This document shows, one piece after another, positions 11,311-59,657 of a stretch of DNA of 64,000 nt. The stretch comes from Clostridia bacterium (lineage in GTDB: Bacteria; Bacillota; Clostridia; Oscillospirales; CAG-272), in contig JAFSSP010000020.1 in assembly GCA_017450945.1 (NCBI GenBank), positions 32,954-96,953 of the forward strand. The letters are read 5' to 3'. The notes below the pieces were generated by a model, which worked only from the letters and a program-made list of their open reading frames with translations, was not told the origin of the DNA and did no database searches. The position numbers were made by a program, and so were the translations under genes. Position 1 is the first letter of the stretch; every line of letters begins with the position of its first letter.

Positions 11311-11315
11311 GAATA

Positions 11316-11378
11316 GAAAAATGCGGGGAAACCTTTTTTGGAAAAAAACGGTTTCCCCGCACCCTTTCTAAAAAACAA
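11316..11378. repeat. Palindromic terminator-like repeat element, copy 1 (copy 2 at 58898-58958)
   Basis: GAAAAATGCGGGGAAACC-T/A-rich loop-GGTTTCCCCGCACCC..TTC.AAAAAAC is shared almost base for base with 58898-58958, in the same orientation. Confidence 0.7.
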
Positions 11379-11397
11379 ACGATCAAAAATTTTCACC

Positions 11398-11426
11398 TTG
11401 CTTTTTGGAAGGATTTGTGATAAAAT
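11398..11426 (+). promoter_or_regulatory. Putative sigma-A promoter of mutY
   Basis: TTGCTT (11398-11403), 17-nt spacer, TAAAAT (11421-11426). RBS AAAGGAG precedes the ATG at 11461. Confidence 0.45.
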
Positions 11427-21399: not shown

Positions 21400-21570
21400 G
21401 AAAAATTTTTGGAAAGCGAGCCTGCGGCTCATAAAGAGGAATTTGTTTTGCGGTTGCCCGCATATTTGTTCCACTGTAACGACAAGAAAAAATCTTGCCG
21501 GAGAGGCATCCGCCGAAAGTTTCGATCACCTCTCGCCTCGTTAACCGCCATAGGCGGTCTGGCGCTATCA
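21400..21570 (-). ncRNA. glmS ribozyme: glmS ribozyme (GlcN6P-dependent self-cleaving riboswitch)
   Basis: Minus strand reads A|GCGCCAGACCGCC...GGCGGUUAACGAGGCGAGAGGUGAUCGAAACUUUCGGCGGAUGCCUCUCCGGC, matching the conserved core as I remember it (AGCGCC cleavage site, GACGAGG, AUCGA..UUCGGCGGAUGCCUC.CGG). The 3' boundary is approximate. Confidence 0.88.
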
Positions 21571-21620
21571 CTGACCCGGATTTGCGGGGACGGAATTCCC
21601 TTCTGTCAGGGGCTTTTATT

Positions 21621-45448: not shown

Positions 45449-45883
45449 GTGAAACACGTGGAAATTTACACCGACGGCGCCTGCCGGGGCAATCCGGGCA
45501 AAGGCGGCTGGGGCGCGATTCTGGTTTACGGAAACAAGGAAAAAGAATTGTCCGGCGGCGAAGCCTTGACCACCAACAACCGCATGGAGCTGACCTCGGT
45601 GATCGAAGCGCTCTCGGCCTTAAAGGAGCCCTGTCGCGTCACTCTGACGTCCGACTCCAAATACGTCGTAGACGCCATCGAAAAAGGCTGGGCGCGTTCC
45701 TGGCAATCGAACGGCTGGAAAAAGGCCGACCGAAAGCCTGCGCTCAACCCCGATCTTTGGGAAAAACTTCTTGCCTTGCTCGACAAGCACGAGGTCACCT
45801 TCGTTTGGGTCAAAGGGCACGACGGACATCCCTACAACGAGCGCTGTGATCAGCTTGCAACAACCTTTGCGGACAGTCTTTGA
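45449..45883 (+). CDS. rnhA: Ribonuclease HI
   Basis: [22 protein letters not shown]...TNNRMEL...[15 protein letters not shown]. The GTG at 45449 lies 6 nt after GGAGGAG. ATG 45434 is too close to the predicted transcription start and has no RBS. Confidence 0.9.
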
Positions 45884-45908: not shown

Positions 45909-46177
45909 GCTGAAACGCCTCATCCGACTTCGCTGCGCTCAGCCACCTTCCCCCACCGGGGAAGGCTCAAAAAGCGAATGCCGAAATTAGAATCGTCATA
46001 CGATTGAAAGCAAAAAATATTACTCACCATAATAGAACTTGAGCTACACAAAAAGTTTTAAGCATTCTATAAAATTTTGAAATTCGCCCCAATTGCCCAC
46101 GATGAATGGCAACCACCCAAAGGCCTTCCCCAGTAGGGGAAGGTGGCACGGCGAAGCCGTGACGGATGAGGTGCCCA
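45909..46177. mobile_element. MITE-like element: inverted pair of two-hairpin modules around a 156-bp AT-rich core, flanked by a 10-bp direct repeat
   Basis: The left module (45918-45966) and the reverse complement of the right module (46123-46171) are identical at 39 of 49 positions in an ungapped hand alignment. ATAGAAAAAG occurs at 45899-45908 and 46178-46187. No coding capacity. Confidence 0.45.
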
Positions 46178-46181
46178 ATAG

Positions 46182-46214
46182 AAAAAGCCGAAAGCAATTT
46201 GCTTTCGGCTTTTT
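46182..46214. terminator. Bidirectional terminator (livF and rnhA side)
   Basis: AAAAA-GCCGAAAGC-aattt-GCTTTCGGC-TTTTT. Confidence 0.8.
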
Positions 46215-50949: not shown

Positions 50950-51015
50950 TGTTTTTTACCTCTTTTCAAAAGATTGTATTGTATTTTCAGCCCGACAGGG
51001 CAAAAAACCGATCTA

Positions 51016-51054
51016 TGAAAAAATGCGGTTCTACCGGAAAAGTAAAACCGCATG
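51016..51054 (-). terminator. Rho-independent terminator after the 81-aa ORF
   Basis: Stem ATGCGGTT (51023-51030) pairs with AACCGCAT (51046-51053); T6 follows on the minus strand. Confidence 0.65.
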
Positions 51055-51067
51055 CAGTTTTTTTGTT

Positions 51068-51313
51068 TTAACCGTTCAGCTTTACTTTTCTATGAAATTT
51101 CAAAAGTACAATAAGGGAAATCAGAATCGGCAGTACCAATACCGATCTCAGAAGAATGGCTACGAGTACCGACACGACGAAAAAAGACACTGCCAGAGCA
51201 GTGTCAAAAAGTCGGTTGGTGGCGGCGGTATTGCCGGCAAAAAAAGACTGGCAGGCAGAAAAAGCCGCGCAGGTGGACGGTCTCATCGAATTGCGAGAAG
51301 CCTTCATCATCAT
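51068..51313 (-). CDS. Hypothetical 81-aa membrane protein, a stand-alone mini-gene
   Basis: Has its own TTGACA-17-TAAAAT promoter, RBS AAAGGAGA 8 nt before ATGATGATG, a C-terminal hydrophobic stretch LAVSFFVVSVLVAILLRSVLVLPILISLIVLL, and its own terminator. Confidence 0.45.
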   Translation of the reverse strand: MMMKASRNSMRPSTCAAFSACQSFFAGNTAATNRLFDTALAVSFFVVSVLVAILLRSVLVLPILISLIVLLKFHRKVKLNG

Positions 51314-51344
51314 GACTTTTTCTCCTTTGCCTTGATTTTTTATC

Positions 51345-51373
51345 ATTTTACACCGAAACTGCCCGGTTGTCAA
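51345..51373 (-). promoter_or_regulatory. Putative sigma-A promoter of the 81-aa ORF
   Basis: Minus strand reads TTGACA (51373-51368), 17-nt spacer ending in TG, TAAAAT (51350-51345). Confidence 0.6.
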
Positions 51374-51480
51374 TGGTACGATTTCACAGAATTTTCGTTG
51401 AAAACAAAACAGTTCTGGTATTTTTGCATAAAAATGCATAGAAAAAAGGCAATATGCAGAAGAAACGGGTTGTATTGAAA

Positions 51481-51534
51481 GCCTTCCTCAGAGAGGAAGG
51501 TGGCATTTTCCCCCGGAAAATGACGAAAGGAGCC
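51481..51534 (-). repeat. Third copy of the two-hairpin repeat module
   Basis: Minus strand reads CTCCTTTCGTCA-TTTTCC-ggg-GGAAAA-TGCCACCTTCCTC-tct-GAGGAAGGC. Same architecture as 45918-45966 and 46123-46171, with compensatory stem changes. Confidence 0.6.
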
Positions 51535-51736
51535 TGCGCGACTTTGAAATTTGCACAAACGCCATTGCCTCGCGGGCTCCTTCAGTCGCCTGTCGGCGAC
51601 AGCTATCCTGTTGCGGTGCCCGAAATTTTTCAGTCGCGCTTCGCGCTCCCAAAATTTCGACCGCGGCCACTCCTCTCGCTCCCTGTTTCCCGCGCTGCGG
51701 GCGGTCGCGCTCGTCCCCTCCCGGAGGGAGCCTTCT

Positions 51737-53158
51737 TTAGTTTTTTGTGCGATTTGCCAGATCGGCGTCCATCGACGCGGCGGCAGTCTTCCCTGCTCCC
51801 ATGGCAAGGATCACGGTGGCGGCACCGGTCACGGCGTCGCCGCCCGCATAGACAAACGGGAGCGAGGTCCTGCCATTCTCGTCGGCGGCAATGCCGCCGC
51901 GGCGGGTCACTTCAAGGCCCTCGGTGGTCGATTTGATGAGCGGATTGGGCGAGGTGCCGATTGCCATAATGACCGCGTCGCAGGGCAAAAAGAACTCCGA
52001 GCCGGGGATCTCGACCGGGCGGCGGCGACCTGATGCGTCAGGCTCGCCGAGCTCCATGCGAATGCAGGTGATGCCCTTGACAAAGCCGTTCTTGGGATCG
52101 CGCCGGTCGTCGGGGTTGTAGTATCCTTCTATTTTGATCGGGTTGCACAGGAGCGAGAACTCGATCCCCTCCTCCATCGCGTGCTCGACTTCTTCCTTTC
52201 GTGCCGGAAGCTCGGCGAGTGAGCGACGATAAACGATGGTCACCTTTTCGGCGCCAAGTCTGAGTGCCGAACGCGCGGCGTCCATGGCGACGTTACCGCC
52301 GCCGACGACCACGACTTTTCCCGCGTGAAAAACAGGAGTGGCGCTTCCCTCTTGATAGGCTTTCATCAGGTTGATACGAGTCAAAAACTCGTTTGCCGAC
52401 GAGACGCCGCAAAGGTTTTCGCCTTCAATGCCCATAAAGTTGGGCAGTCCCGCGCCCGAACCGATGAAAACGGCTTCATATCCCTCGGATTTGAGATCCT
52501 CGATCGAGAGCGTTTTGCCGATGACGGTATTCAGGCGAATCTCAACGCCAAGTTTTTTCAGACCGTCGATCTCCTTTTGCACAATGGCCTTGGGCAAACG
52601 GAACTCGGGAATGCCGTAAACCAGCACGCCGCCGGCCGCGTGAAGCGCTTCAAAAATGGTAACCGCATATCCCCGCTTGGCAAGGTCTCCCGCGCAGGTC
52701 AGGCCCGCAGGCCCCGAACCGATCACGGCGACCTTGCGACCGTTGGATACCGGTTTTTGTGGTTTTTCTTTGGAAGTTTCATTGTGAAAATCGGCGACAA
52801 AGCGTTCGAGCCGGCCGATGGCGACAGGCTCGCCTTTGATCCCGCGGACGCATTTGCCCTCACACTGGCTCTCCTGCGGGCAGACTCTGCCGCAGACGGC
52901 CGGGAGCGAGGAGGCAACGGTTATGATCCGGTAGGCTTCTTCAAACTCGCCCACTTTGACCTTTTGTATAAAGGAAGGAATGGAAATTCCGACCGGGCAA
53001 CCCTCAACGCAGAGCGGCTTTTTGCAACCGAGGCAACGGTCGGCCTCGTCGATCGCGGCTTCTTTCGTGTATCCGAGCGTCACTTCGAGGAAGCTCTTGC
53101 CGCGCTCGATCGGGTCGCGCGTGGGCATGGGGTTCTTTTTGAGAGAGAGATTCGGCAT
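51737..53158 (-). CDS. nfnB: NADPH-dependent glutamate synthase small-subunit homolog; probable NfnB (NADH-dependent ferredoxin:NADP+ oxidoreductase large subunit)
   Basis: N-terminal [4Fe-4S] Cys clusters (CLGCKKPLCVEGCP, CGRVCPQESQCEGKC) and VAVIGSGPAGLTCAGDLA. Paired with an NfnA-like gene 1 nt upstream. Confidence 0.75.
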   Translation of the reverse strand: MPNLSLKKNPMPTRDPIERGKSFLEVTLGYTKEAAIDEADRCLGCKKPLCVEGCPVGISIPSFIQKVKVGEFEEAYRIITVASSLPAVCGRVCPQESQCEGKCVRGIKGEPVAIGRLERFVADFHNETSKEKPQKPVSNGRKVAVIGSGPAGLTCAGDLAKRGYAVTIFEALHAAGGVLVYGIPEFRLPKAIVQKEIDGLKKLGVEIRLNTVIGKTLSIEDLKSEGYEAVFIGSGAGLPNFMGIEGENLCGVSSANEFLTRINLMKAYQEGSATPVFHAGKVVVVGGGNVAMDAARSALRLGAEKVTIVYRRSLAELPARKEEVEHAMEEGIEFSLLCNPIKIEGYYNPDDRRDPKNGFVKGITCIRMELGEPDASGRRRPVEIPGSEFFLPCDAVIMAIGTSPNPLIKSTTEGLEVTRRGGIAADENGRTSLPFVYAGGDAVTGAATVILAMGAGKTAAASMDADLANRTKN

Positions 53159-53159
53159 A

Positions 53160-53999
53160 TCACTTCACCTCCCGGTACAAATTGCAAACCGCTTCGTGCG
53201 CGGCGCGCTCAAAGGGACGGTACATCGCTCCCCGCGCCATCGCTTCGTCAAAATCAACCAGATGCCCGTCAAACTCGGGACCGTCCACGCAGGCAAAAAG
53301 CGTTTTTCCGCCGACCGTCAGGCGACACCCGCCGCACATGCCGGTGCCGTCAATCATGATCGGGTTCATCGAGACCACGGTGGGAATGTTGTATTCTTTC
53401 GTTAGAAGCGAGACGAATTTCATCATGGGAAGAGGTCCTATGGCAAGGACTCTGTCATACTGTTCGCCCGAATCGATCAAAGCCCGCAAAGCGTCGGTCA
53501 CAAGACCTTTTTCGCCCCAGGAACCGTCGTCCGACATCTTGACGAACTTTTGCGACACGGCCGAAAACTCCTCTTCGAGGATCACGAGATCACGATTCCG
53601 GAATCCCGCGATCACATGGACGGTCGCACCTTCATGGAAAAATTTTTTGGCCGCAGGATAAGCGATGGCGCACCCGACGCCGCCGCCTACGACCGCAACC
53701 TTGCGGACGCCCTCGGTTTCGGTCGCCCGGCCAAGAGGCCCCACAAAGTCCGAAAGGCACTCGCCCACCTCCATGTGCGAGAGTCGCTCGGTCGTCGCTC
53801 CCACCACCTGAAAGATGATGGTCACGCTGCCGGCACTTCTGTCGTAATCGGCAATGGTGAGCGGGATCCGCTCGCCGTTCTCATCGGTTCTGAGAATGAC
53901 GAACTGCCCCGGCTGCGCCTTTTTTGCCACGGCGGGAGCTGCGATCTTCATGCGCAGGACGGTGGGATTTAAGATCTGTTTTTCGAGAATTTCATACAT
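53160..53999 (-). CDS. nfnA: Ferredoxin-NADP+ reductase-like subunit; probable NfnA
   Basis: FNR-like fold (PGQFVILR, VAVVGGGVGCA) with the C-terminal [2Fe-2S] motif DGTGMCGGCR...ACVDGPEF. Confidence 0.75.
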   Translation of the reverse strand: MYEILEKQILNPTVLRMKIAAPAVAKKAQPGQFVILRTDENGERIPLTIADYDRSAGSVTIIFQVVGATTERLSHMEVGECLSDFVGPLGRATETEGVRKVAVVGGGVGCAIAYPAAKKFFHEGATVHVIAGFRNRDLVILEEEFSAVSQKFVKMSDDGSWGEKGLVTDALRALIDSGEQYDRVLAIGPLPMMKFVSLLTKEYNIPTVVSMNPIMIDGTGMCGGCRLTVGGKTLFACVDGPEFDGHLVDFDEAMARGAMYRPFERAAHEAVCNLYREVK

Positions 54000-56235: not shown

Positions 56236-58896
56236 ATGGTAAGGAGCAAACAAACCCCGGCTTTGCGGGGACTCACCGAAGAAGAAGTCCTGCAATCAAG
56301 GCGCAAAAATGGCGAAAACCGGCTGACAAAACAAAAGAAAAAACCTTTTATTTTGCAATTTTTTTCCAATCTCAACGACCCTGTTATCCGGATCCTCATC
56401 GGCGCCATGGCAGTCAACCTTTTGCTTCTTTTCCGCTCGGCCGACTGGATGGAGACCGCCGGGATTGGAGGCGCGGTACTGCTTGCCACGCTCGTTTCGA
56501 CCCTGTCCGAATACGGCTCGCAAAAAGCCTTTGAACGGCTTTCGATGGAAAGTGCAAACCGCCTGTCCCGCGTTTACAGGAATGGGAAACTGACCGAGCT
56601 TCCAAGTGCGGAGCTTGTGGCGGGCGATCTTGTCCCGCTTTCGGCAGGCGACGCGGTACCGGCCGACGGAAGGATCATAGAAGGATCTGTCACAGTCGAT
56701 CAATCGGCCCTGACCGGAGAGGCAAAAGAGGTCGAAAAGCGTCCCGGAAAAGAGACAGCCGCCCTCCCCTCTTCGCCCGCTTTTCTCTTTCGCGGGAGCA
56801 ATCTGCTCTCGGGCGCAGGAGTCATGGAGATCACTGCCGTAGGTGACCACACCTTTCTTGGCGGCATCTCCAAAGAGATCCAATCCGAGCAAAGAGAAAG
56901 CCCTCTTAGGCGCAGGCTCTCAAAGCTCGCGCGTCAGATCAGCCGGGTCGGGTACGTGGCGTCGGTCCTGGTTGCGCTCGCCTATCTGTTTCAGGTTTTC
57001 GTGTTGCAAAGCGGGAAAAACCCCGAAGTGATCCTTTTCAAGCTGACCAATCTTCCCTATCTCTTTACCCAGCTTCTCCACGCCTTTACGCTGGCGCTGA
57101 CCGTGCTCGTCGTCGCCGTCCCGGAGGGACTGCCGATGATGGTGGCGGTCGTGCTCTCCTCGAACGTCCGCAGGATGATCCGCGATAAGGTGCTGGTCAG
57201 AAAAGCGGTCGGGATCGAGGCGGCCGGCAGTATGAGCCTCTTGTTTACCGACAAGACCGGGACGCTGACCGAGGGCAAAATGAAGGTAGACGGATTTTGG
57301 CTTCCGGACGGAAGTTATAAAAAAAGGCTTCCCGAGGATGCCTGCGGCCGCCTTCTTTCGATCGTGTTTGCACATATCACAGAGGCAAAACGAGGAATCG
57401 GCACCGATGGAAAGCCCGCCATCCTCGGCGGAAACGGAACTGAACGCGCACTTCTCGAAAGCCTTGAAAACAAAGCCACTCCCGCCTGCCGTGTTCTCTC
57501 TTATCTTCCGTTTGACAGCACCCGAAAATACGCGGCGGCAACGCTTGCCTGTCCCGAGCGCACGACTCTGCTTCTCGGCGCGCCCGAGTTTCTGCTTCCG
57601 CAGGTCAAAAGCGAGCTTTTCCCGGACGGATCCATCCAAAAAAGCAGCCGCGCAAAGTATGAACAGGCACTCGCCCGATTGACCGAAGAGGGCTGTCGTG
57701 TGATCGCGCTTGCGATCTCCTCCGACGGACTTGACGCAACTCGCCACGCCGTCTCGCCCGCAGGCGACCTGACGCTTGTGGGACTTGCCGCATTGCGCGA
57801 CCCGCTCCGAAGCGACGCAAAGGATTCGGTGAGAATTCTGCAATCGGCCGGGATACAGGTGGTGATGATCACCGGTGACAATCCGAAAACCGCCGAAAGC
57901 ATTGCAAAAAGCAGTGGCATTCTGACAAAAGAGCGACCACGGGTCGTGACCGGTGAAGAACTTTCCCGCCTCTCGGACAGAGAGGTCAAAGAGCTTTTGC
58001 CTCGTCTTGCGGCGGTCGCCCGTGCGCTCCCGGGCGACAAAAGCCGCCTCGTGCGGCTTGCCGAAGAGGCGGGAGAGGTGGTCGGCATGACCGGAGACGG
58101 CATCAACGACGCGCCGGCGCTGAGGCTCTCCGACGTCGGTTTTGCCATGGGAAGCGGCACGCAGGTGGCCAAGGACGCGGGGGATATCGTCATTCTCGAC
58201 AACCGGCTTTCCTCGCTTGCAAAAGCCGTTCTTTACGGTCGGACGATCTTCAAGAGCATCCGCAAATTCATTACCTTGCAGCTCACCATGAATTTCTGCG
58301 CCGTGGCCATCACGATGATCTGCCCTTTTCTCGGAATTGAGACACCGATCACGGTGGTGCAGATGCTTTGGATCAACCTGATCATGGATACGCTCGGCGG
58401 GCTTGCCTTTGCCGGAGAAGCGCCGCTCCCGGATACCATGGAAGAGCCTCCCAAGCGTCGCGACGAGCCGATCCTCAACCGCTACATGGTCAACGAGATC
58501 CTGCTCCTCGGCTCTTTTACGGTGGGGCTTTTGCTTTGGTTCCTAAAATCCTCTGCCATCTCTGCGATCTTTCGTTCTTCGTCTGATCAGATCTACCATT
58601 TGACCGCCTTTTTCGTGCTCTTTATCTTCTCCTCGGTCTTCAACTGCTTCAACGCCAGAACCGATCGACTCAAAATGACCGCGGGGCTTGGCAAAAACCC
58701 GGTTTTCCTTTGCATCATGGCGGCGATCCTTGTCATCCAGATCGGCTTTGTCTACCTCGGCGGCCCAGTTCTGCGCACTTCTCCCCTGACTCTGCGAGAA
58801 CTGCTCCCCACGCTCGCCCTCTCGCTCTCGGTCTTCCCGGCCGAACTCTGCCGCAAAGCCCTTTGGCGCTTGCGTGGGAAAAGGAGCGGGTATTAA
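56236..58896 (+). CDS. Cation-transporting P-type ATPase (P2-type, Ca2+-ATPase-like)
   Basis: Phosphorylation motif DKTGTLT, MITGDN, and the hinge GDGINDAPAL. Ten predicted transmembrane segments is the family norm; I did not count them. RBS GGGAGG. Confidence 0.9.
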   Translation: MVRSKQTPALRGLTEEEVLQSRRKNGENRLTKQKKKPFILQFFSNLNDPVIRILIGAMAVNLLLLFRSADWMETAGIGGAVLLATLVSTLSEYGSQKAFERLSMESANRLSRVYRNGKLTELPSAELVAGDLVPLSAGDAVPADGRIIEGSVTVDQSALTGEAKEVEKRPGKETAALPSSPAFLFRGSNLLSGAGVMEITAVGDHTFLGGISKEIQSEQRESPLRRRLSKLARQISRVGYVASVLVALAYLFQVFVLQSGKNPEVILFKLTNLPYLFTQLLHAFTLALTVLVVAVPEGLPMMVAVVLSSNVRRMIRDKVLVRKAVGIEAAGSMSLLFTDKTGTLTEGKMKVDGFWLPDGSYKKRLPEDACGRLLSIVFAHITEAKRGIGTDGKPAILGGNGTERALLESLENKATPACRVLSYLPFDSTRKYAAATLACPERTTLLLGAPEFLLPQVKSELFPDGSIQKSSRAKYEQALARLTEEGCRVIALAISSDGLDATRHAVSPAGDLTLVGLAALRDPLRSDAKDSVRILQSAGIQVVMITGDNPKTAESIAKSSGILTKERPRVVTGEELSRLSDREVKELLPRLAAVARALPGDKSRLVRLAEEAGEVVGMTGDGINDAPALRLSDVGFAMGSGTQVAKDAGDIVILDNRLSSLAKAVLYGRTIFKSIRKFITLQLTMNFCAVAITMICPFLGIETPITVVQMLWINLIMDTLGGLAFAGEAPLPDTMEEPPKRRDEPILNRYMVNEILLLGSFTVGLLLWFLKSSAISAIFRSSSDQIYHLTAFFVLFIFSSVFNCFNARTDRLKMTAGLGKNPVFLCIMAAILVIQIGFVYLGGPVLRTSPLTLRELLPTLALSLSVFPAELCRKALWRLRGKRSGY

Positions 58897-58897
58897 G

Positions 58898-58958
58898 GAA
58901 AAATGCGGGGAAACCTTTTTGCGAAAAAAAGGTTTCCCCGCACCCCTTCGAAAAAACG
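58898..58958. repeat. Palindromic terminator-like repeat element, copy 2. On the minus strand it is the likely terminator of whiA-dnaE-HAD.
   Basis: GAAAAATGCGGGGAAACC...GGTTTCCCCGCACCCCTTCGAAAAAAC is nearly identical to 11316-11378. The minus-strand reading ends in ATTTTT. Confidence 0.7.
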
Positions 58959-58973
58959 ACCAAACGAAAGGTT

Positions 58974-59657
58974 TTAACAGCCTTTCAAAAGCATTGGCAG
59001 TTCGGATAATTTTTGGATGGTATAATCCGGCTTGATCCTGCCGGGGTCTTGGCCCTTTGGCGAAAACCAGCAGGTTTTGATCCCTGCGTTTTTGCCGCCG
59101 AGGATATCCGAGGACAGGCTGTCGCCGACAAGCAGGGCCTCGTCCTTGGAAAAGCCGGGGATGCGAGCAAAGCAGTAGTCGAAAAACTCCTTTTGCGGCT
59201 TGACAAAACCGATTTCTTCCGAGAGGAAAATTCCTTCAAAATAATGCTCGATCCCGGCACTTGCCAGCCGTCCTCGCTGGACGGCGGTGGTTCCGTTGGA
59301 GACGAGAAACAGGCGATAGTCCGGGACAAGCCTTTCCAGGAGTTCTTGCGCGCCCTCGACGAAAAAGTGGCCTTTTGCAAGATTCTCTTCGTAGGTTGTG
59401 CGCAGGATTGCCGGATCGGTTTTGATCCCAAATTCCTTGCAAAAGCGCACAAAACGGCCGAGCTTGACCTCTTCTCGGGTACATTTCCCGCGCTCCAGGC
59501 GCTTCCACTCCTCGGCGTTGATTTCGTGGTATCTTTCAATCTGTTTTTCGGTAAAGGAAACGCCAAAGTCGGTCAAAGTTCTCGTCAGCGACGCGCGCTC
59601 GGACAGGCCGAAATCGAGAATGGTATCATCAAGATCAAACAACAGAAAACGGATCAT
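58974..59657 (-). CDS. HAD-IA family hydrolase (YjjG-like nucleotidase/phosphatase)
   Basis: Motif I FDLDDTILDF, with motif II and motif III regions (SNG; GDSLSSDILGG). Confidence 0.85.
   Translation of the reverse strand: MIRFLLFDLDDTILDFGLSERASLTRTLTDFGVSFTEKQIERYHEINAEEWKRLERGKCTREEVKLGRFVRFCKEFGIKTDPAILRTTYEENLAKGHFFVEGAQELLERLVPDYRLFLVSNGTTAVQRGRLASAGIEHYFEGIFLSEEIGFVKPQKEFFDYCFARIPGFSKDEALLVGDSLSSDILGGKNAGIKTCWFSPKGQDPGRIKPDYTIQKLSELPMLLKGC

Follow-up and report, generated by a model that had tools for sequence, protein, structure and literature searches.

Families of repetitive extragenic palindromes (REPs) have been described that are shared across phyla, are dimeric, lie in spacers between convergent or unidirectional genes and have no dedicated transposase (Di Nocera et al. 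2013, PMC3733652). The Whalefall-1 motif (RF01762) was known from whale-fall metagenomes only and was taken for a non-coding RNA that stands by itself (Weinberg et al. 2010, PMC2864571), and DNA mini-hairpins of the C(GNA)G or GCGNAGC type are extraordinarily stable (PMC13037366; PMC3201870). Here we analyse a stretch of 64,000 nt (the window) from a Clostridia bacterium (GCA_017450945.1, contig JAFSSP010000020.1, positions 32,954 to 96,953), and in it the tract downstream of an NfnB/GltD-like gene (nfnB) and upstream of the promoter of a liv transporter operon, for which a reading of the letters without database searches (the sequence-only reading) had reported many hairpins and a third copy of a two-hairpin module. 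On balance, we take this tract to be a cluster of small interspersed palindromic units like a bacterial interspersed mosaic element (BIME), that is, of non-coding, non-autonomous DNA repeats of ~50 nt similar to REPs and REP doublets forming hairpins (REPINs).

On its purine-rich strand (the forward strand), the unit reads (A)GCCTTCCCC-loop-GGGGAAGG-T-GGC(hairpin 1)G(A/C)C-GGATGAGG(K)G: a near-invariant hairpin 2 with a pyrimidine and a purine arm, a one-base linker, a hairpin 1 of free sequence and length, and a conserved purine tail, GGATGAGG. The window holds three units of this form (type i): copy A (45915-45968, minus strand; 52.4 bits), 32 nt past the end of an RNase H gene; copy B (46121-46174, plus strand; 60.8 bits), just beyond the terminator hairpin of livF; and copy C (51479-51533, plus strand; 29.8 bits, E=5e-8), the copy in the tract, recognised by sequence and fold. 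These scores come from a covariance model (CM), R1, built from an alignment (A2) with 38 seed rows, two of which are constructed chimeras that allow hairpin-2 variants and serve for searching only. Copies A and B are seed rows and copy C is not, and the score of copy C may be slightly inflated because one chimeric row used its hairpin-2 arms (with a 4-nt loop replacing the 3-nt one). A scan of the 64-kb window with R1 matched exactly copies A, B and C (E-values 5e-8 to 1e-18); the three modules, whose sequences (45917-45967, 46123-46171 and 51481-51534) are as the sequence-only reading gave them, are indeed one family.

Copies A and B face each other hairpin 2 to hairpin 2 as an inverted pair, separated by 152 nt of AT-rich spacer and flanked by two converging genes that end just before it, and an Rfam search read the pair as one long inverted repeat. 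The spacer (45969-46120) also contains a plus-strand promoter-like site (TTGAAA-18-CATAAT, 46004-46033) aimed through unit B at the terminator at ~46186-46208, from which a small transcript of ~170 nt could arise; the site is a single consensus match, no better than chance in the region.

Copy C reads GCCTTCCTC-aga-GAGGAAGG-T-GGCATTTTCC-ccc-GGAAAATGAC-GAAAGGAG on the plus strand. In its hairpin 2, 51482-51489 pairs with 51493-51500 (arms CCTTCCTC/GAGGAAGG); the linker T is at 51501; in its AT-rich hairpin 1, 51502-51511 pairs with 51515-51524 (~10-11 pairs, including one G.A, around a CCC loop); and the tail (51525-51532) is the degenerate GAAAGGAG. A spacer of 45 nt (51534-51578) separates copy C from a degenerate unit of a second form (type ii), which is inverted relative to copy C (51579-51608, minus strand; the plus strand reads CCTTCAGTCGCC-tgtc-GGCGACAGCTATCC), lacks the purine arm of hairpin 2 and is similar to a locus in our collection (L241). 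Type-ii units have the form GGCTTCYCC-loop-GGRGAAGC-T-GTC(hairpin)GAC-TGATGAGG and grade into a sister family that reads CCYC-TCAGTCGC(C)-loop-(G)GCGACAGCT-CCCC-loop-GGGGAGCC on the pyrimidine strand. Tail-to-tail dimers elsewhere usually consist of a type-i unit and an inverted type-ii unit with a spacer of 27-47 nt, and copy C, its spacer and the inverted type-ii unit are a typical dimer of this kind. This anatomy accounts for the long hairpin GGAGCCTGCG...CGCGGGCTCC (51529-51580) of the sequence-only reading: the hairpin is there (in folds, 51529-51542 is paired with 51567-51580), and we re-read it as the two unit tails and the spacer of a dimer.

A second, more degenerate sister unit is found at 51627-51650 (minus strand, with a GAA loop; the plus strand reads TTTTCAGTCGCGC-ttc-GCGCTCCC), where Rfam gives a partial, non-significant match to Clostridiales-1 (13.9 bits, E=2.5). 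A further, putative unit, seen by eye only and more decayed, occupies 51668-51733 on the minus strand, starting 4 nt past the nfnB stop codon; it reads GGCTCCCTC-cgg-GAGGGGAC ... CCCGC-agc-GCGGG ... GAGAGGAG and forms hairpins in folds, and R1 has no match there at E<=10. The other hairpins that had been listed for the tract are present as well (GTCGCC-tgtc-GGCGAC at 51585-51600, GCGC-ttc-GCGC at 51636-51646 and CTCCC-gga-GGGAG at 51718-51730), as is the 9-mer TTCAGTCGC repeated at 51581 and 51629. The tract folds better than shuffled sequences, with z = -2.5 on the minus strand and -3.1 on the plus strand (one of 100 shuffles is as good on each). Overall, it is made up of about four units that point in either direction, a mosaic such as an Escherichia coli BIME.

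Two pattern scans, one of viral contigs (anchored on hairpin 2 only) and the other of a set with a single genome for each species (with GGGGAAGGTGGC...GGATGAGG as the anchor), gave at least 120 matches each; all counts of viral copies and hit loci given here are among the matches listed in these two scans. The whole unit is present in ~100 of the viral stretches listed, though hairpin 1 and the tail GGATGAGG were outside the pattern, and nearly all of the species matches listed also carry the pyrimidine arm, which the pattern did not demand. The latter are mostly from Clostridia (Oscillospiraceae, Ruminococcaceae and Acutalibacteraceae; the genera include Pseudoflavonifractor, Lawsonibacter, Gemmiger, Sporobacter and Butyrivibrio), and Selenomonadaceae (Negativicutes) are also among the carriers. 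Full units are found beyond Firmicutes in Planctomycetes (Paludisphaera, Phycisphaerae), Alphaproteobacteria (Roseiarcus, Bradyrhizobium), Xanthomonas, Rhodanobacter, Oxalobacter, Chloroflexi and one myxobacterial metagenome-assembled genome (MAG), and on two alphaproteobacterial plasmids, of Methylosinus and Sphingomonas. R1 finds ~200 full-length units across 707 kb of hit loci, and viral contigs have several copies each. The sister family is likewise abundant among the matches listed in its own scan. The sequence-only reading had mentioned that GGTGGC...GACGGATGAGG repeats are widespread in gut Clostridia, and the DNA scans agree, with a range far beyond Clostridia. For its further remark, that they are often mis-translated as short hypothetical proteins, a protein search with the 57-aa open reading frame (ORF) that reads through copy B gave no confirmation, as it returned no match. 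We found no description of the unit family in a full-text literature search by sequence strings and by REP-like repeats in Clostridia.

Some loci hold unusual arrangements of units. In L184 (160-2160 and 6460-7920), at least 10 units alternating in strand form a dense array, and in many of them hairpin 2 is broken by an insert of ~35 nt (…CCTTCCCACATAGAAGCGGATAGATAGAGGAGGATACTTAAAATCGGGGGAAGG…), which suggests local amplification of a variant unit. Two other loci (L144:1300-2010 and L177:4250-5110) have tandem duplications of 400-456 nt that consist wholly of small hairpin repeats of several kinds, the studied unit plus others such as CAATCCCCAAAAGGGGTAAGGTAAGG.

The claim that hairpin 1 is replaced with its pairing kept holds across the family. 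In an ordinary MAFFT alignment of 79 real copies (chimeras excluded), hairpin 1 has standard pairs in 85.6% of cells versus 62.3% in column shuffles (0 of 500 shuffles reach the observed value), and controls slid along the alignment are 25-34% paired. There are 124 double-sided changes in this hairpin, and one pair is AU 23 times, CG 23, GC 20 and UA 11. Among 272 instances we counted 161 different hairpin-1 sequences, and 246 of the 272 zip perfectly or nearly so. It is strongly confirmed that structure rather than sequence is kept in hairpin 1. Hairpin 2 is 99.8% paired in the model-fitted alignment and is invariant (CCTTCCCC/GGGGAAGG) in 110 of 124 viral copies. The C-to-T change with a matching G-to-A that had been pointed out in this hairpin is real in copy C (CCTTCCTC/GAGGAAGG), and family-wide such a change is an exception; the other compensatory variants are CCTTCTCC/GGAGAAGG, GGCTTC../..GAAGCT and CCCACCCC/GGGGTGGG, and in the model-fitted alignment one pair is CG 130 times and UA 11, and the outer pair CG 130 times and GC 14.

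None of this implies an RNA, since covariation in a palindrome is equal on both strands and may arise in DNA or RNA, and so cannot tell the two apart. In quasi-palindromes, a change in one arm can be carried over to the other when replication switches templates, without selection on RNA. We found 29 hairpin-1 variants that recur in at least two different flanking contexts, in unrelated surroundings and genomes, which implies copying of particular variants. In a separate observation, six viral contigs (L015, L041, L045, L078, L100 and L107) have near-identical flanks, apparently at the same site, and keep the same hairpin 1 (CCCGCAGGG), while their hairpin-2 loops differ (CTCG, TGTG, CGAG); CTCG and CGAG are reverse complements, and such a loop inversion would be expected from palindrome-mediated template switching in DNA.

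For the genomic contexts of the units, genes were called with a home-made codon-usage caller, which reproduces the genes of the window and replaced cruder ORF-based counts of orientation. About 94% of the units in bacterial genome loci are intergenic: 22 lie between convergent genes, nine between divergent genes and 57 between unidirectional genes; all three window copies are located after gene ends. Unit orientation is random relative to unidirectional neighbours (28 vs 29), and there is no preference relative to GC skew (67 vs 70). Units tend to be inverted with respect to one another: 31 neighbours no more than 300 nt apart are inverted and four are direct, with preferred spacings (gaps of 36-47 nt for tail-to-tail pairs and 2-28 nt for hairpin-2-to-hairpin-2 pairs), and large mosaics of units are found in other Clostridia MAGs. 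The intergenic and convergent placement, the excess of inverted neighbours and the dimer anatomy favour the REP/BIME-like array that the sequence-only reading had offered as one of its possibilities.

The distribution is also patchy. We found one unit in 489 kb (80 loci of NfnB relatives) versus three in the 64-kb window. This sole unit (L289:2600-2900; the NfnB relative has 69% identity) is downstream of the nfnB homologue, where a canonical terminator is followed by the unit, with the polarity of copy C, and then by a TTGACA/TATAAT promoter of an unrelated next gene; apart from the unit itself, this downstream region cannot be aligned with the tract. REP-associated tyrosine transposases (RAYTs; Y1 transposases of the IS200/IS605 type), which are flanked by units in REP systems, are single-copy genes. 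No RAYT or other transposase was found among the genes between unit pairs or in clusters of flanking proteins at the loci examined. A unit on the Methylosinus trichosporium OB3b plasmid pOB3b1 (L242:2501-2549) has an annotated transposase gene of the IS4 family as a neighbour, whose 3' end is ~85 nt away, a single case that is probably coincidental.

The two strands of the unit are not alike. On the purine strand, 70 of the 161 distinct hairpin-1 sequences have C(GNA)G triloops (GCGAAGC is the commonest core), while the mirror TNC form is found in five and GNRA tetraloops in seven; the strand that the sequence-only reading chose as the common orientation is therefore not the one whose hairpin loops look optimised. 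The C(GNA)G triloops suggest that it is the purine strand that folds, more likely as DNA than as RNA. Where the genes flanking a unit in viral contigs are unidirectional, their sense strand coincides with the pyrimidine-rich strand of the unit in 68 of 76 cases (89%), and in 36 of 44 for the sister family; the viral units typically follow a stop codon at a distance of 2-36 nt and leave ~15-26 nt to the next start codon. The three window copies share the viral polarity, with the purine-rich strand antisense to the gene they follow, and among bacterial units no more than 40 nt from a stop codon the purine strand is first in 15 cases and not in one.

The BIME-like reading draws on family membership, covariation, genomic distribution, dimers, patchiness and the recurrence of hairpin-1 variants in unrelated contexts, all of them directly observed. 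On this reading, units gather in the intergenic DNA where genes end, mostly in the form of inverted dimers; copying would pass through a single-stranded DNA (ssDNA) stage in which the purine-rich strand folds with C(GNA)G loops, and may be carried out by a trans-acting enzyme, by analogy with RAYTs and REPs. The units of the tract would serve the host in no dedicated way, except that any transcript reading through from nfnAB would carry their stable hairpins. The viral polarity might be reconciled with this picture if the units are orientation-neutral as DNA and the purine-rich reading is costly in an operon transcript, because of strong Shine-Dalgarno-like strings such as GAAGGUGG and GAGGUG; such a cost would lead tightly packed phage operons to keep one orientation only.

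Several points weigh against this reading. The orientation of viral units relative to genes is fixed (68:8 in the family, 36:8 in the sister family), and a neutral selfish repeat needs an added orientation-dependent cost to explain it. Hairpin 2, linker and tail are near-identical across phyla and the internal stem is hypervariable; each of these is unusual for REPs, and both suggest purifying selection by a conserved binding partner. Whalefall-1, with a similar architecture, was rated as certain RNA ('Y') by its discoverers (PMC2864571). At the loci examined, no transposase or other mobilising gene adjoins the units, and the gene calls rest on the home-made caller. Joining the flanks of units gave no clean empty site, only within-locus repeats; this search for filled and empty sites is uninformative, since all loci were chosen for carrying a unit.

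It is unlikely that the unit is a functional structured RNA on the purine strand, either a small non-coding RNA or a Whalefall-1-type cis element of mRNAs, that is bound by a conserved RNA-binding factor and whose repeats are simply many instances. The architecture of RF01762 (which a sister unit matches with 24.1 bits, E=0.04) and the 'Y' rating of Whalefall-1 (PMC2864571) speak for it, and so do the strong covariation, the conserved single-stranded linker and tail (which suggest sequence-specific recognition), the non-canonical pairs of the purine strand (mostly G.U or G.A, not A.C), the position of copy B between a promoter-like site and a terminator, and the fixed orientation in viral contigs. 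However, that orientation places the purine-rich strand antisense to the neighbouring genes, both in viral contigs and at the three window copies; bacterial orientation is random (28 vs 29) and neighbours are mostly inverted dimers, which is the habit of a DNA repeat; G-N-A triloops (71 vs seven GNRA tetraloops) are a signature of DNA stability; the window copies have no Whalefall-1 match even at E<=10; and the covariation of a palindrome fits RNA and DNA alike.

We give a rather small chance to a reading in which the unit is more than selfish DNA: it would be a structured single-strand element, DNA or RNA, of phages and of bacteria at large, with invariant parts (CCTTCCCC/GGGGAAGG, the T-GGC junction and GGATGAGG) that stay constant across phyla because a widely shared machine reads them, and phages would keep it in one polarity because of a role in replication, transcription or host takeover. 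Against the 3' end of 16S rRNA, which we take to be ...GGAAGGUGCGGCUGGAUCACCUCC..., the purine strand of the unit repeats GGAAGGUG...GGAU and the other strand has CACCUYCC beside a hairpin; on this assumed 16S end, the unit could imitate the 3' minor domain of this rRNA or base-pair with it.

It is very doubtful that host selection keeps the tract as a 3' element of the nfnAB operon, with stacked hairpins that would end transcription or stop 3'-to-5' exonucleases and thereby shield the liv promoter. There is no canonical minus-strand terminator from the nfnB stop codon to the liv promoter, the tract is unusually structured, the NfnB relative at L289 has a unit in the same orientation downstream of nfnB, and E. 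coli REPs stabilise upstream mRNA (PMC3733652). But the units have no U-tracts, a canonical terminator already precedes the unit at L289 and copy B, and units likewise adjoin unrelated genes everywhere; moreover, 79 of the 80 loci of NfnB relatives have no unit, so that nfnAB expression does not involve it as a conserved part.

A further possibility, that the purine strand is an ssDNA signal for phages, plasmids and their hosts (for priming, complementary-strand initiation, or as a replication or packaging cue), is improbable. C(GNA)G is a hallmark of the phage G4 complementary-strand origin, of RSF1010 ssiA and of the promoters of the N4 virion RNA polymerase (PMC13037366), and viral contigs carry several copies in a strict single-strand polarity, with further units on plasmids. 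Yet bacterial loci show no orientation bias with GC skew (67 vs 70), inverted dimers place the signal on both strands, no link with replication genes was seen at the loci examined, and the viral polarity may merely track gene direction. That the likeness of the three window copies is chance among GC-rich hairpins, for which only the general abundance of hairpins in GC-rich intergenic DNA speaks, can be dismissed as virtually impossible given 0.00 expected occurrences of GGTGGC-N8-30-TGACGRAWGAGG in shuffles, CM E-values from 5e-8 to 1e-18 and hundreds of full-length relatives elsewhere.

Other candidates were tried and rejected. The suggestion of the sequence-only reading that the modules act as terminators was not supported: a T-run (at least five T in the 7 nt after hairpin 2) is found in 16 of 241 units, and T is not enriched past the tail. 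Copy B and the L289 unit are downstream of a canonical terminator and so are not the terminator there. Its observation that nfnB has no canonical terminator was correct, as no terminator-like site was found on the minus strand within the tract, and an intrinsic terminator was rejected on both the T-run count and this absence. A coding repeat was rejected because loop and stem lengths vary and the reading frame is not kept. Type-ii tails contain CUGAUGAG of the hammerhead core, without the stem II/GAAA arrangement and without an Rfam match; the likeness to the T-box antiterminator bulge (GGUGGN) rests on a single hairpin-1 variant; and TGGCAC of sigma-54 promoters is present in the long variant only. 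CsrA sites, Chi, FtsK-orienting polar sequences (KOPS) and SpoIIIE recognition sequences (SRS) were set aside for want of an orientation bias with GC skew, and a CRISPR repeat was dropped on inspection.

The tract sits in the 3' flank of nfnB (51737-53158, minus strand; Pfam Fer4_20 and Pyr_redox_2), with nfnA (53160-53999, minus strand) upstream of it. On the other side the tract is bounded by a minus-strand promoter-like site, TTGACA-17-TAAAAT (51345-51373), a consensus match only, at 11 of 12 positions. Next come a leader of ~400 nt and the livK-H-M-G-F transporter operon (50949->46219, minus strand), with a bidirectional terminator hairpin (~46186-46208) 3' of livF, on which the RNase H gene (plus strand, ending at 45883) converges. 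No other contig on record encodes an identical NfnB protein, and a search for relatives found none nearer than 73% identity, which makes a strain-level comparison of the tract locus impossible.

The liv-operon leader (50950-51373, minus strand) combines its strong promoter-like site with two terminator-like hairpins with T-runs (51205->51186 and 51053->51023) and an ORF of 81-123 aa (51068-51313/51439) that has no Pfam match; the leader matches no Rfam family and could be an attenuator or a leader of unrecognised type. The sole Rfam match at gathering level in the window is a glmS ribozyme/riboswitch (21423-21577, minus strand; 66.2 bits, E=5e-13). A 90-nt direct repeat with 72% identity (11315-11404 and 58896-58985), with a hairpin GCGGGGAAACC...GGTTTCCCCGC between A/T runs, seems to represent another family of terminator-like elements that recur, one with no relation to the units.

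As an intergenic repeat cluster, the tract is of an ordinary kind, yet it comes from a remarkably widespread family with odd strand properties. If the REP-like reading is true, the units form a large super-family of repeats, present in gut and rumen Clostridia as well as in several other phyla, that is absent from Rfam 15 and of which we found no description, and the orphan motif Whalefall-1 would be reinterpreted as one branch of a dispersed repeat family. A model for the family would then be of practical use, as its units would pollute gene calls, break assemblies and inflate predictions of 'hairpins' and 'structured RNAs'. Three features are unusual for REPs (near-identity across phyla, a hypervariable internal hairpin capped by G-N-A and an almost fixed viral polarity), and they make two questions testable: how REPs without a transposase are mobilised, and what units cost or contribute in transcripts.

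A search of Rfam 15 with the window and 23 other loci, at gathering and permissive thresholds, found no family that covers the unit, and 18 loci from diverse phyla gave one tRNA only; a match to an already described family would have counted against the sequence-only reading, and what we found is architectural likeness only, to Whalefall-1 and to the CGTC-tagged REPs. Like REPs, BIMEs and REPINs, the units are short palindromes, mostly intergenic and probably multi-copy, that some genomes carry and others lack; they favour gene ends and convergent spacers, are rare in divergent spacers, and occur as inverted dimers and as mosaics in both orientations, with one apparent folding strand. They differ in having two hairpins per unit and no GTAG tag, in that one stem is hypervariable within a genome whereas the other stem, linker and tail are almost identical across phyla, and in having no RAYT association seen among the loci examined.

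The CGTC-tagged REPs (PMC3733652) are closer in sequence: the long variant of the unit reads CGTC-A-(palindrome)-TG-CCA on the pyrimidine strand, with a CGTC head and CCA after the stem, and in both groups dimers predominate, several phyla (especially Alphaproteobacteria) are involved and no dedicated transposase is known. The stems, however, do not fit: those of the CGTC-tagged REPs have 8-9 bp, open with two A-T pairs and carry loops of 4-5 nt, whereas the unit stems are GC-rich, have 4-12 bp, start with G-C, G.A/G-C or C-G, and have loops of mostly 3 nt. GACG/CGTC is found in ~39% of the units (others have GCCG or GTCG) and overlaps the outer stem pairs, whereas the tag of the CGTC-tagged REPs (CGTC or TGTC/CCTC) is unpaired; furthermore, hairpin 2 and the CCTCATCC tail have no counterpart in these REPs, and the paper lists no Firmicutes (PMC3733652).

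Whalefall-1 and the unit have their parts in the same order: first a hairpin whose pyrimidine and purine arms enclose a loop of 4 nt, next a short linker followed by a variable hairpin, and last a purine tail (GGGUGAGGAC, to be compared with GGAUGAGGUG). Its best relative in our collection is a sister unit (L144:1523-1577; 24.1 bits, E=0.04 vs RF01762, and 44.1 bits vs R1), while copies A, B and C have no match to RF01762 (gathering score 37 bits) at E<=10; Whalefall-1 has been treated as a stand-alone RNA, whereas the studied unit is a dispersed repeat. In most units, hairpin 1 carries a C(GNA)G triloop like the d(GCGNAGC) mini-hairpins of Hirao and colleagues (PMC13037366). The latter are a structural motif, found in nature at single sites within replication origins and phage promoters, whereas the units are dispersed. 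The closest known systems are thus REPs, BIMEs and REPINs in behaviour, the CGTC-tagged REPs in sequence detail and Whalefall-1 in architecture.

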